Origin: Escherichia coli O127:H6 str. E2348/69
GTDB lineage: Bacteria; Pseudomonadota; Gammaproteobacteria; Enterobacterales; Enterobacteriaceae
Length of the DNA stretch: 64,000 nt
Assembly (NCBI RefSeq): GCF_000026545.1
Contig: NC_011601.1
Direction: 5' to 3' (one strand)
Every line of letters begins with the position of its first letter. Within the stretch, counting starts at the first letter, position 1. This document shows positions 12,960 through 28,300 of this stretch, in pieces. The translations under genes were made by a program, and so were the position numbers. The notes beneath the pieces were generated by a model. That model was not told where the DNA came from and did no database searches. It saw only the letters and a program-made list of their open reading frames with translations.

Positions 12960-13187
12960 ATGCCGCACATCGACATTAAATGTTTTCCGCGTGAGCTGGA
13001 CGAACAACAAAAAGCAGCGCTTGCTGCAGATATTACCGACGTTATTATTCGCCATCTGAACAGTAAAGATAGCTCGATAAGCATTTCTCTACAGCAGATT
13101 CAACCAGAATCCTGGCAAGCTATCTGGGATGCCGAAATCGCGCCCCAAATGGAGGCTTTGATAAAGAAACCCGGTTACAGCATGTAA
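12960..13187 (+). CDS. pptA: tautomerase PptA (4-oxalocrotonate tautomerase family)
   Basis: ORF 12846..13187; start placed at [33 protein letters not shown]... (N-terminal Pro after Met). Confidence 0.85.
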
Positions 13188-13192
13188 AATGC

Positions 13193-22598: not shown

Positions 22599-23987
22599 TT
22601 ATTTTTGGCTGAACTTCCGCCGACCATAAACCAGCCAGGTCAGTAGCACACAAACGATGTAGAAGATTAAAAACACTTTCATCGCGCCCACCGGAGAGCC
22701 GGTCATATTGAGCGACATGCCAAACGCCTGCGGAATAAAAAAGCCGCCCACTGCGCCAATGGCTGAGATAAAGCCCAGAGCGGCTGCCGTTTCGGTGACG
22801 GCTTCTCTTTGAGCTTGCTCATCACTACCGCCTTTCATCTTCACCCGATAAATTGTTATCTGGCGAAAGATGACGGCGATCATCTGGAAAGTAGAACCAC
22901 TTCCCAGACCCGCGGTCAGAAACAGCCCCATAAATACGGCGTAAAATGCGATGAAATTACCGGAGCCTGTGCCCGGTAAGGTAAGGAACAGCAGGGCGCT
23001 GAAAATCGCCATAAAAATGAAGTTGATCAACGTCACCCGCACGCCGCCGAATTTATCGGAAATAGCACCACCAACCGATCGCGCGATGGCACCGATAAAT
23101 GGGCCAAAGAACGCCAGGCGCAGAATATTCACATCCGGGAACTGGGTTTTTGCCAGCATGGCAAAACCCGCAGAAAAACCGATAAACGAACCGAAGGTGG
23201 CAAGATAAAGCAGGCTCAGCAGCCAGAGATGCAGGCGTTGTAAGACAGGGAGCTGGTCGGCAATTGAGGTGCGTGAACTGGCGATATCATTCATCCCTGA
23301 CCAGGCGGCGATCGTGGCAATCGCCAGTAATGGCACCCAAATCCATGCGGCATTCGCCAGCGACATCACCGAACCGTCGGCCTGCGGTACGCCATTGACG
23401 CCGAGAAAGGCAAATACGGGTACAAAAATGACCAGCGGTGCAACCAGCTGCATCACACTTACACCTAAGTTTCCTAATCCGCCATTAATCCCAAGAGCGC
23501 TCCCTTGTTTGGCTTTTGGAAAGAAGAAACTGATATTGCCCATGCTCGAAGCAAAGTTCGCACCTGCAAAACCGCATAGCAAAGCGATAACGATAAATAT
23601 CCCAAAAGGGGTATTCGGATTTTGCACGGCAATTCCGAGCCAGACGCAAGGAATAATCAGGATTGCAGTACTAAAAACCGTCCATCGGCGTCCACCGAAT
23701 ATAGGCACCATAAAGGAGTAGGGGACACGCAATAATGCGCCAGAAACGGAGGGTAATGCGGTTAATAAAAAGAGTTGATCGGTAGTGAAATTAAAACCGA
23801 TTTTATTGAGATTAACAGTAACTGCGCTAAATAGCATCCAGACACAGAAGGCAAGAAGTAGACAACTGACTGATATCCAGAGGTTTCTTCGTGCAATATG
23901 CTTTCCTTTATTTTCCCAGAAGGCCGGATTTTCTGGTTTCCAGTCGCGTAAAAGATAACGACTATTTTTCTCATTTTGCAGTGCCAT
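22599..23987 (-). CDS. narU: nitrate/nitrite transporter (MFS)
   Basis: ORF 22599..24029; start placed at MALQNEKNSRYLLRDWKPENPAFW... (462 aa). Confidence 0.9.
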   Translation of the reverse strand: MALQNEKNSRYLLRDWKPENPAFWENKGKHIARRNLWISVSCLLLAFCVWMLFSAVTVNLNKIGFNFTTDQLFLLTALPSVSGALLRVPYSFMVPIFGGRRWTVFSTAILIIPCVWLGIAVQNPNTPFGIFIVIALLCGFAGANFASSMGNISFFFPKAKQGSALGINGGLGNLGVSVMQLVAPLVIFVPVFAFLGVNGVPQADGSVMSLANAAWIWVPLLAIATIAAWSGMNDIASSRTSIADQLPVLQRLHLWLLSLLYLATFGSFIGFSAGFAMLAKTQFPDVNILRLAFFGPFIGAIARSVGGAISDKFGGVRVTLINFIFMAIFSALLFLTLPGTGSGNFIAFYAVFMGLFLTAGLGSGSTFQMIAVIFRQITIYRVKMKGGSDEQAQREAVTETAAALGFISAIGAVGGFFIPQAFGMSLNMTGSPVGAMKVFLIFYIVCVLLTWLVYGRRKFSQK

Positions 23988-24265
23988 ATTGTTCCTCACA
24001 TGCACACATTGGTAATGAAAAAAAGACAAAACAGGAGGAGGAGGTAAGGCGCAATAGCCAGTTATTAGAATTAAGGATGAATCAGGTGAAGTGCTGATTA
24101 GAAGAATAGATAAGAAAGCGTAACTGCGGGGGCAGAATGTGGATTAAACAGACAGATATGTGTTACTAAATGTAACTAAAATGGCTTTCTGGTATTTGAA
24201 ATTTATTTTTTAATATTGTCAGAATTTATCTGATTAACTGCCGGGCCGTAGACCCGACAATTATT

Positions 24266-25147
24266 TTAGCCACGACGTGTCGCCAGCCAGCAGAGCAGGG
24301 AACCGCCGCAGACCATTAGCGCGCCTTGCCAGAACGAGAACGACAGCGGGGCGCTGAGCAGCACGGCTGCAAGCGCTGAGGAAAGGACGGGCGTAAAATA
24401 CGAACCTACCGCCATTATGGTGACGTTGCCATGTAATATACCGACATTCCATGCAGCATAAGCAAATCCTAAGGTAAATGCCGCAGAGATGAGTTTAATC
24501 ATGACGGGCGTGCTAAATACCATTTCTGGTTGTGGCGTAAGAAAATAGTAAACCCACAGACTTGCTCCCGTTAGCAGGACAAAAACGGTAATTCCGTTAA
24601 ATCCGCGTGCGTATTTATTCGTTACTGTGCAGTAGGCTGCCCAGATAAACGCCCCAATGAACGCCAGGAAATAACTCAATGGGCTGGTGGTGATATTATT
24701 AATAATTTGATCATAATGTAACCCATTGTCACCGCCTAACACCCAGCAGACGCCGACCAGGGCTAATAATAATCCTGGTACAATCAGCCAGTTGGTTTTC
24801 TGACCATTAAACAGAATGGCAAAGAGAATTGTCAGGCTGGGCCATAGATAGTTCACCATCCCCACTTCAATCGCCTGATGACGGGTCGCCGCATACCCTA
24901 AGGAAAGCGCCAGACAGATTTCATAGCTGACGAATAACAGACTCCCGGCGAGTAAATAGCCTTTCGGGATCTGTCGAATACGCGGAAATCCAACCGTGAA
25001 GATTAACAGCAGCCCGCTTAATGAATAGATAGCAGCTGCGCCGCCGACCGGGCCGAGTCCCTCACTGACACCGCGAATCAATCCTACCATCGTGCTCCAC
25101 AGGACGATCGCTATTAGCCCTATGAGCGTTGCTTTTTGTCGTGTCAT
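24266..25147 (-). CDS. yddG: aromatic amino acid exporter (DMT family)
   Basis: ORF 24266..25183; start placed at MTRQKATLIGLIAIVLWSTMVGLIRG... (293 aa). Confidence 0.9.
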   Translation of the reverse strand: MTRQKATLIGLIAIVLWSTMVGLIRGVSEGLGPVGGAAAIYSLSGLLLIFTVGFPRIRQIPKGYLLAGSLLFVSYEICLALSLGYAATRHQAIEVGMVNYLWPSLTILFAILFNGQKTNWLIVPGLLLALVGVCWVLGGDNGLHYDQIINNITTSPLSYFLAFIGAFIWAAYCTVTNKYARGFNGITVFVLLTGASLWVYYFLTPQPEMVFSTPVMIKLISAAFTLGFAYAAWNVGILHGNVTIMAVGSYFTPVLSSALAAVLLSAPLSFSFWQGALMVCGGSLLCWLATRRG

Positions 25148-25237
25148 GCTCGCTGTTTTGTCTCTCTTGCCGTTAAAAATCAAGCTGAATTTTATAGCAT
25201 TTTTTTAACTGGTCTGTCAGGCAGTGGGGCGTTTTTC

Positions 25238-25253
25238 TACCGCTATTGAGGTA
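25238..25253 (+). promoter_or_regulatory. candidate NarL 7-2-7 heptamer pair in the fdnG promoter
   Basis: TACCGCT-AT-TGAGGTA fits TACYYMT-nn-AKRRGTA; about 105 bp upstream of the predicted fdnG start region, consistent with the reported -104.5 site (recalled). Confidence 0.45.
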
Positions 25254-25300
25254 GGTCAATTTGCGCAGGCGGATTATTTTGTGGCAAACACGTGTTCTTT

Positions 25301-25314
25301 TTGATTTCGCGCAA
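25301..25314 (+). promoter_or_regulatory. candidate FNR box in the fdnG promoter
   Basis: TTGAT-TTCG-CGCAA (TTGAT-N4-ATCAA with two mismatches) about 70 bp upstream of the fdnG ATG. Confidence 0.4.
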
Positions 25315-25378
25315 AAAGATTCAGAATTTTACTGTTAGTTTCCTCGCGCAGTAATACCCCTGAAAAAAGAGGAAAGCA

Positions 25379-28300
25379 ATGGACGTCAGTCGCAGACAAT
25401 TTTTTAAAATCTGCGCGGGCGGTATGGCGGGAACAACAGTAGCGGCATTGGGCTTTGCCCCAAAGCAAGCACTGGCTCAGGCGCGAAACTACAAATTATT
25501 ACGCGCTAAAGAGATCCGTAACACCTGCACATACTGTTCCGTAGGTTGCGGGCTATTGATGTATAGCCTGGGTGATGGCGCGAAAAACGCCAGAGAAGCG
25601 ATTTATCACATTGAAGGTGACCCGGATCATCCGGTAAGCCGTGGTGCGCTGTGCCCGAAAGGGGCCGGTTTGCTGGATTACGTCAACAGCGAAAACCGTC
25701 TGCGCTACCCGGAATATCGTGCGCCAGGTTCTGATAAATGGCAGCGCATTAGCTGGGATGAAGCATTCTCCCGTATTGCGAAGCTGATGAAAGCTGACCG
25801 TGACGCTAACTTTATTGAAAAGAACGAGCAGGGCGTAACGGTAAACCGTTGGCTTTCTACCGGTATGCTGTGTGCCTCCGGTGCCAGCAACGAAACCGGG
25901 ATGCTGACTCAAAAATTTGCCCGCTCCCTCGGGATGCTGGCGGTAGACAACCAGGCGCGCGTCTGACACGGACCAACGGTAGCAAGTCTTGCTCCAACAT
26001 TTGGTCGCGGTGCGATGACCAACCACTGGGTGGATATCAAAAACGCTAACGTCGTAATGGTGATGGGTGGTAACGCTGCGGAAGCGCATCCCGTCGGTTT
26101 CCGCTGGGCGATGGAAGCGAAAAACAACAACGATGCAACCTTGATCGTTGTCGATCCCCGTTTTACGCGTACCGCTTCTGTGGCGGATATTTACGCACCT
26201 ATTCGTTCCGGTACGGACATTACGTTCCTGTCTGGCGTTTTGCGCTACCTGATCGAAAACAACAAAATCAACGCCGAATACGTTAAGCATTACACCAACG
26301 CTAGCCTGCTGGTGCGTGATGATTTTGCTTTCGAAGATGGCCTGTTCAGCGGTTATGACGCTGAAAAACGCCAGTACGATAAATCGTCCTGGAACTATCA
26401 GTTCGATGAAAACGGCTATGCGAAACGCGATGAAACACTGACTCATCCGCGCTGTGTGTGGAACTTGCTGAAAGCGCACGTTTCCCGCTACACGCCGGAC
26501 GTAGTAGAAAACATCTGCGGTACGCCAAAAGCCGACTTCCTGAAAGTGTGTGAAGTGCTGGCCTCCACCAGCGCACCGGATCGCACAACCACCTTCCTGT
26601 ACGCGCTGGGCTGGACGCAGCACACCGTGGGTGCGCAGAACATCCGTACTATGGCGATGATCCAGTTGCTGCTCGGTAACATGGGTATGGCCGGTGGCGG
26701 CGTGAACGCATTGCGTGGTCACTCCAACATTCAGGGCCTGACTGACTTAGGCCTGCTCTCTACCAGCCTGCCAGGTTATCTGACGCTGCCGTCAGAAAAA
26801 CAGGTTGATTTGCAGTCGTATCTGGAAGCGAACACGCCGAAAGCGACGCTGGCTGATCAGGTGAACTACTGGAGCAACTATCCGAAGTTTTTCGTTAGCC
26901 TGATGAAATCTTTCTACGGCGATGCCGCGCAGAAAGAGAACAACTGGGGCTACGACTGGCTGCCGAAGTGGGACCAGACCTACGACGTCATCAAGTATTT
27001 CAACATGATGGATGAAGGTAAAGTCACCGGTTATTTCTGCCAGGGCTTTAACCCGGTTGCGTCCTTCCCGGACAAAAACAAAGTGGTGAGCTGCCTGAGC
27101 AAGCTGAAGTACATGGTGGTTATCGATCCGCTGGTGACTGAAACCTCTACCTTCTGGCAGAACCACGGCGAGTCGAACGATGTCGATCCGGCATCTATTC
27201 AGACTGAAGTATTCCGTCTGCCTTCGACCTGCTTTGCTGAAGAAGATGGTTCTATCGCTAACTCCGGTCGCTGGTTGCAGTGGCACTGGAAAGGTCAGGA
27301 CGCGCCGGGCGAAGCACGTAACGACGGCGAAATTCTGGCGGGTATCTACCATCATCTGCGCGAGCTGTACCAGGCCGAGGGTGGTAAAGGCGTAGAACCG
27401 CTGATGAAGATGAGCTGGAACTACAAGCAGCCGCACGAACCGCAGTCTGACGAAGTGGCGAAAGAGAACAACGGCTATGCGCTGGAAGATCTCTATGACG
27501 CTAATGGCGTGCTGATTGCGAAGAAAGGTCAGTTGCTGAGTAGCTTTGCGCATCTGCGTGATGACGGTACAACCGCATCGTCTTGCTGGATCTACACCGG
27601 TAGCTGGACAGAGCAGGGCAACCAGATGGCTAACCGCGATAACTCCGACCCGTCCGGTCTGGGGAATACGCTGGGATGGGCCTGGGCGTGGCCGCTCAAC
27701 CGTCGCGTACTCTACAATCGTGCTTCGGCGGATATCAACGGTAAACCGTGGGATCCGAAACGGATGCTGATCCAGTGGAACGGTAGCAAGTGGACGGGTA
27801 ACGATATTCCGGACTTCGGCAATGCCGCACCGGGTACGCCAACCGGGCCGTTTATCATGCAGCCGGAAGGGATGGGACGCCTGTTTGCCATCAACAAAAT
27901 GGCGGAAGGTCCGTTCCCGGAACACTACGAGCCAATTGAAACGCCGCTGGGCACTAACCCGTTGCATCCGAACGTGGTGTCTAACCCGGTTGTTCGTCTG
28001 TATGAACAAGACGCGCTGCGGATGGGTAAAAAAGAGCAGTTCCCGTATGTGGGTACGACCTATCGTCTGACGGAGCACTTCCACACCTGGACCAAGCACG
28101 CATTGCTCAACGCAATTGCTCAGCCGGAACAGTTTGTGGAAATCAGCGAAACGCTGGCGGCGGCGAAAGGCATTAATAATGGCGATCGTGTCACTGTCTC
28201 CAGCAAGCGTGGCTTTATCCGCGCGGTGGCTGTGGTAACGCGCCGTCTGAAACCGCTGAATGTAAACGGTCAGCAGGTTGAAACGGTGGGTATTCCAATC

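Follow-up and report, generated by a model that had tools for sequence, protein, structure and literature searches.

The interval between yddG and narU is a published site of variation in the Escherichia coli chromosome. O-island 62 of O157:H7 EDL933 is located there, and the portion of Okeke et al. 2011 (PMC3079680) that deals with this island compares its O157, 042 and K-12 forms, likening yddL to the 5' end of z2239 and yddJ to the 3' end of z2242, the two outer ORFs, and reading the island as recently acquired. The same portion of that paper records the island as absent from other genomes and leaves the compact junction undescribed. In the K-12 annotation (NC_000913.3) yddJ (a pseudogene), yddK and yddL lie between narU and yddG, and the corresponding spacer of BW25113 is 2,227 bp long, to which PGAP assigns one frameshifted leucine-rich-repeat (LRR) gene and an N-terminal porin fragment. 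O157:H7 and other strains have about 4.4 kb at this site. It comprises espR1, whose annotation is that of an LRR protein and T3SS effector, together with additional LRR fragments and an intact porin of 366 aa. Strain 405 has an intermediate form of the interval. The Pfam domains Porin_1 and LRR were found in the genes of these long alleles.

The narU side of the interval has a described regulator in K-12. ChIP-exo showed extensive OmpR occupancy of the narUZYWV promoter during osmotic stress, and knocking out ompR lowered narU expression from 38.1 to 0.81 FPKM, a log2 change of -5.56 (Seo et al. 2017, PMC5438342). The same study gives the OmpR motif as KWWGTTACAT and the repeat as GTTACATTTTGTTACAT.

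The locus analysed here lies in a window of 64,000 nucleotides, meaning the whole stretch of DNA under analysis, from E. coli O127:H6 str. E2348/69 (contig NC_011601.1). Its narU-yddG junction is compact. It is the empty allele of the published variable island, an ordinary strain difference that is already known, and our comparisons make it very likely that this allele is a lineage-specific deletion at the O-island 62 (yddJ-yddK-yddL) locus.

A compact spacer between narU and yddG

A 1,501-bp query taken from the window is 100% identical to the E2348/69 chromosome. In the RefSeq annotation of this 100%-identical record, narU (22599..23987, minus strand), encoding a nitrate/nitrite transporter of 462 aa, is the neighbour of yddG (24266..25147, minus strand; also in the ORF list), encoding an aromatic amino acid efflux DMT transporter of 293 aa. 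Both genes are on the minus strand with non-coding DNA only between them, and RefSeq places the divergent fdnG beyond yddG. The narU start codon is the ATG at 23987, preceded by a GAGGAA ribosome-binding site 6 nt upstream; in an alignment of 25 narU upstream regions both of these elements are conserved across genera, with indels appearing in the sequence further upstream.

An earlier note on this DNA, made from the sequence alone, had placed narU directly adjacent to yddG, which the RefSeq annotation and the ORF list bear out, and had described the separation as about 235 bp of AT-rich sequence. The composition is as described, with 36.3% GC in the spacer versus 48.0% in the whole window, but the length is not: the spacer runs from 23988 to 24265, or 278 bp. 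The estimate fell 43 bp short because the narU start had been taken from a TTG-extended ORF (22599..24029), the end of which is the position 24030 given in that note. Its statement that K-12 carries yddJ, yddK and yddL in the interval was correct according to NC_000913.3, and the synteny comparison confirms the proposal of a more compact junction, with 278 bp here versus 2,227 bp in K-12 and about 4.4 kb in O157:H7. Within 23988-24265 no ORF and no homology was found for LRR or porin genes or their fragments.

Part of the spacer length is particular to this strain. The alignment shows an (AGG)4 tract on the plus strand, corresponding to (CCU)4 in the narU leader (24033..24044, minus strand); at the matching site ATCC 11775 and ST131 have (AGG)2, and K-12 has CGAGG. 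Because of this 6-bp (AGG) expansion the spacer measures 278 bp in E2348/69 versus 272 bp in other compact-allele strains. The (AGG)4 tract belongs to the stretch wrongly read as coding with the TTG-extended narU ORF (to 24029).

Breakpoints of the compact allele

When K-12, O157 and two further long forms were compared with the window from anchored flanks, the breakpoints fell at 24179|24180 and 24188|24189 each time. Homology on the narU side stops at 24179 (24177 in one record, L085), and on the yddG side it restarts at 24186-24189 in K-12, O157 and other long forms. The narU-proximal 192 bp (23988..24179, minus strand), which comprise the regulatory region and the leader, are common to all alleles, and their segments anchored at positions 24xxx are 93.5-94.6% identical to the long forms. 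On the other side, the yddG 3' flank (24189..24265, minus strand) is 92.5-97.4% identical to K-12, O157 and other long forms, in which it runs on into the porin upstream region; it corresponds to the first ~80 bp of what would be the ancestral yddG-porin intergenic region.

Between the two flanks lies a 9-bp filler, AATGGCTTT (24180..24188, no strand assigned), that matches neither flank of the long alleles. These 9 bp replace 1,960 bp in K-12, 4,147 bp in O157, 4,162 bp in strain ES5 and 2,535 bp in strain 405. Microhomology was considered for the deletion ends and rejected, as none is clear: the ends share only TAA, and the unexplained 9-bp filler counts against the deletion reading.

The window thus shares its site with O-island 62 of O157:H7 EDL933 and with the EAEC 042 and K-12 counterparts of the island, the flanks being 93-98% identical and the break positions the same. 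Unlike these forms, it has the empty allele, with no porin or LRR genes and with 9 bp in the place of 1,960-4,162 bp. The breakpoint at 24179/24180 coincides with the outer limit of the OmpR motif described below, and the DNA from this box to narU is kept in every allele. Such retention is the expected product of purifying selection on a regulatory region, and no special mechanism is needed to account for it.

Frequency of the compact allele

The frequency of each allele was estimated in 5,426 complete E. coli genomes. The compact junction was recovered in one piece from 1,134 genomes with the 1,501-bp query and from 1,117 with a 211-bp query. The K-12-type insert was covered to at least 80% in 3,131 of the 5,426, and the long type, counted only approximately from matches of 90-95%, is present in about 1,030. 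That the junction is an assembly or sequencing artefact, such as a collapsed region, can be set aside as next to impossible, since over 1,100 independent genomes, all complete and with ATCC 11775 and ST131 isolates among them, share the identical junction.

Because 1,108 records match the 211-bp query with at least 99% identity, the data suggest that the compact allele stems from one event. Its carriers include the type strain ATCC 11775 and O25b:H4-ST131 isolates, which, together with E2348/69, we take to be members of phylogroup B2. The compact junction is a clean marker, found as a single allele (at least 99% identity) in ~21% of complete E. coli genomes. In addition, E2348/69, an EPEC strain, lacks the locus from which O157 produces the type III effector EspR1. 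As a discovery it carries little weight; the genome, the variable island and OmpR control of narUZYWV have all been published.

The interval shows further variation. IS1 or IS5 insertions are present in it in some genomes (NZ_AP022245.1, NZ_CP084897.2). Escherichia sp. MOD1-EC7003 (L003 8001-16876) has a yddG (98% identical), and no narU was found within 8 kb; ORFs that we recognised by eye, and presume to be nhoA-, ansP-, yncE- and yncD-like, follow yddG directly, and the narUZYWV operon appears to have been deleted in this strain.

Direction of the event

A YddG scan with one genome per species yielded 80 loci. A porin gene with the orientation of yddG begins 350-630 bp beyond it in Citrobacter, Salmonella, Enterobacter, Lelliottia and other Enterobacteriaceae. 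A further 3-4 kb on, narU is found in Enterobacter hormaechei and in members of the Citrobacter freundii group. Between yddG and narU, Citrobacter has genes for a porin, a GFA-family protein, a TetR regulator and, ahead of the latter and on the opposite strand, an MFS transporter; the ORFs that follow yddG in Salmonella arizonae agree with these in size and order (L012 9339-13334; L024 9373-13202). We take this Citrobacter and Salmonella interval to be the ompD-smvA region. Its likeness to the E. coli locus lies in the Porin_1 gene that follows yddG on the same strand and, in Citrobacter, in a downstream narU with an OmpR-like box; unlike the window, it has kept the porin, the GFA-family gene, the MFS transporter and the TetR gene, none of which is present in the window. 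The TetR gene of Citrobacter stops ~35-60 bp short of the OmpR-like box that precedes narU.

The similarity between E. coli and these outgroups extends to sequence. Along its full length the porin of O157 shares 71% identity with that of Citrobacter, and part of the K-12 yddG-yddL intergenic region matches the region upstream of the Salmonella arizonae porin with 73% identity over 82 bp (E = 4e-5). The 81-bp yddG flank of the window is a shortened version of the yddG-porin intergenic region, 92.5-97.4% identical to the long forms, and its comparison with the long-allele flank scores 141 versus a shuffle mean of 35.

A compact junction at this site is also present in two genomes that carry the label E. 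coli but have only ~90% nucleotide identity (L005 and L006). Their flanks between yddG and the conserved box resemble each other, with 0 of 500 shuffles scoring as well, and when they are compared with the flank of the window 180 and 374 of 500 shuffles score as well. We rejected a shared origin of the window's junction with these two, given a flank similarity no better than that of shuffled sequence. The deletion in the E2348/69 lineage is accordingly read, on sequence evidence, as independent of the loss in the L005/L006 species.

The reverse order of events would make the compact state ancestral for Escherichia, so that the porin-LRR block was inserted later in non-B2 E. coli and E2348/69 never had the genes. 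Such an order would fit the low GC content of the island (36% overall and 33% in espR1; 44% in the island porin versus 48-49% in the porins of Citrobacter and Salmonella), as well as the view of Okeke et al., in the portion concerned with the island, that it is recently acquired (PMC3079680). A simple count by parsimony could favour it too, given the compact junctions of the L005 and L006 species. Against this, Citrobacter, Salmonella and Enterobacter all have the porin at the corresponding site behind yddG and in the matching orientation, the E. coli sequence upstream of the porin is homologous to its Salmonella equivalent, and the flank in the window is a truncated yddG-porin intergenic region dissimilar to the compact flank of the other Escherichia. 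We therefore consider an ancestral compact state improbable. Because a porin follows yddG in the outgroups, because both porin and flank are homologous, and because the L005/L006 flanks are unrelated, we infer that the event in the E2348/69 lineage was a deletion.

If the compact junction is a deletion allele, the following course of events can be proposed. The ancestral enterobacterial order would have been yddG, an OmpD-like porin, further genes and then narU. In E. coli, low-GC LRR genes would have taken the place of the middle genes (espR1 in O157), and in K-12-type strains the porin would then have been reduced to the fragment yddL. The lineage that includes E2348/69, ATCC 11775 and ST131 would have lost the entire block, with 9 bp left in its place. 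The end of the deletion would fall at the outer edge of the OmpR box, such that the full narU control region survives.

A predicted OmpR box beside the breakpoint

The 330 bp upstream of narU were aligned for 25 loci from Escherichia, Citrobacter, Enterobacter, Kluyvera, Raoultella and Pseudenterobacter, revealing two blocks that are invariant across genera. The distal block belongs to a predicted OmpR box (24158..24180, minus strand) composed of two tandem 10-bp units, TTTAGTTACA and TTTAGTAACA, which occupy 24180-24161 and form a direct repeat with 10-bp spacing. On the minus strand the box reads GTTACATTTAGTAACACAT from 24176 down to 24158. All 25 narU upstream regions have its core, TTACAnTnnGTAACA, unchanged amid diverging neighbouring sequence, which is more conservation than neutral evolution would leave. 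Of the 17 positions in the published OmpR repeat, 14 agree with the box.

This distal block looks like the ompC C1 site, a resemblance that the literature supports. A reading of the block as a simple palindrome, GTTAC-N5-GTAAC, was rejected; it fits sites for CRP, FNR, NarL, TyrR and LysR-type regulators more poorly than the tandem arrangement fits OmpR. The exact pattern GTTACANNNNGTWACA occurs once in the 64-kb window. Matches to it with one mismatch are present at 24717-24732 and 13174-13189, one of them inside yddG; both are probably fortuitous, as ~0.4 would be expected by chance in the window.

The OmpR ChIP-exo peak at narUZYWV was reported at 1542224-1542283 in older MG1655 coordinates (PMC5438342). 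We converted this position with an offset of 1,977-1,978 bp, checked by the fact that the ompC peak then covers the C1 sequence (taken from PMC2586830) in NC_000913.3. The converted narU peak spans 1544201-1544261 of NC_000913.3, and the K-12 box at 1544225-1544243 lies essentially at its centre. The E2348/69 control region resembles the K-12 narUZYWV promoter: both have the same box, GTTACATTTAGTAACACAT, and identity over the 192 bp preceding narU is ~94%. The two differ upstream of the box, where K-12 has the yddJ 3' flank and E2348/69 has the filler and the yddG 3' flank. By analogy with K-12, OmpR would be expected to activate narUZYWV in E2348/69 as well.

Promoter candidates and leader

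The second invariant block, TTTYTTATCTATYCTT, is likewise unchanged in all 25 narU upstream regions and contains the best candidate for a -10 element, TCTATTCTT (24102..24110, minus strand), which in our judgement resembles an extended -10 element of the sigma-S type. With this element in use, the OmpR box would stand ~50 bp upstream of it, the centre of the box would be near -73, and a leader of ~110 nt would follow.

An alternative candidate is a sigma-70 promoter (24064..24090, minus strand) consisting of TTCACC (24090-24085), a 15-nt spacer and TCTAAT (24069-24064), which is present in the window and conserved within Escherichia only. The same TTCACC-N15-TCTAAT motif was singled out beneath the RpoD peak that genomic SELEX gave between narU and yddJ in K-12 (Shimada 2014, PMC3946193). 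In the genomic-SELEX study of RpoS, narU is absent from the RpoS list, the sole mention of the gene being in an RpoE table, for a peak in the narU-yddJ spacer listed in W3110 coordinates; an activator-dependent promoter might be absent from factor-free genomic-SELEX. For narUZYWV the table of Seo et al. gives no transcription start or distance to one (PMC5438342).

Because both candidates lie inside it, and because the OmpR box and the -10-like block are retained, the spacer very probably holds the narU promoter. The earlier note had stated that the interval must contain this promoter, and the view is well supported as long as its "must" is taken as a strong inference. Promoter prediction in the interval, the check that the note had proposed, was run as a simple consensus scan, which returned no minus-strand promoter in the spacer.

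The putative leader was also evaluated for structure. No match to a known RNA family in Rfam was obtained in 23000-25500 at E <= 1. The fold of the putative narU leader has a z-score of +1.25 (+1.36 in ATCC 11775), no better than that of shuffled sequences, which lends no support to a structured leader or riboswitch. Sequestering of the ribosome-binding site is likewise unsupported, the (CCU)n tract being unpaired in the putative narU leader fold.

Possible effects on narUZYWV expression

A 12-bp G+C-rich hairpin (24236..24262, minus strand) starts 3 nt after the yddG stop codon and has no U-tract. The RNA of 24170-24275 (106 nt) folds with -31.5 kcal/mol (z = -5.98). As a hairpin without a U-tract, the structure was rejected as an intrinsic terminator, and a terminator scan of 23800-24500 found no terminator-like site. 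On the opposite strand the 24236-24262 hairpin is followed by TTATTTT.

The deletion could be functional if transcription of yddG were to read through into narUZYWV, partly coupling a respiratory operon to the promoter of an amino-acid exporter. The hairpin without a U-tract, the lack of a terminator-like site in the scan and the distance of 278 bp between two same-strand genes would all suit read-through. However, the yddG hairpin is also found downstream of yddG in the long alleles, and the same hairpin-bearing 81 bp there imply that termination is presumably adequate, possibly by a Rho-dependent route. Moreover, narU expression can be accounted for by the OmpR-dependent promoter that was kept, and we regard read-through as unlikely.

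A point mutation upstream of narU bears on a related question. T1538580C, which is ciprofloxacin-adaptive in BW25113, raises narUZYWV expression up to 10-fold (PMC11417348). The mutation maps to position 5851 of our BW25113 locus (L001), 263 bp upstream of narU, where the plus strand has T as expected. This site lies in a K-12-specific segment distal to the OmpR box and has no counterpart in the window. Rewiring of narUZYWV expression by the compact allele in the E2348/69, ATCC 11775 and ST131 lineage, whether through read-through or through loss of a distal element, nevertheless seems to us doubtful. If it did take place, the link between "narU-upstream mutations" and ciprofloxacin would be due in part to the structural allele of ST131-type strains rather than to adaptation by point mutation.

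The structural difference also affects how variants are called. Calls of narU regulatory variants against K-12/MG1655 are ambiguous in compact-allele strains, in which part of the interval is absent. Because that part of the MG1655 reference interval is absent in compact-allele strains such as ST131, the published association with ciprofloxacin resistance could be confounded by lineage. In the BW25113 sequence, the T1538580C site adjoins a hairpin with a 7-bp stem downstream of yddJ.
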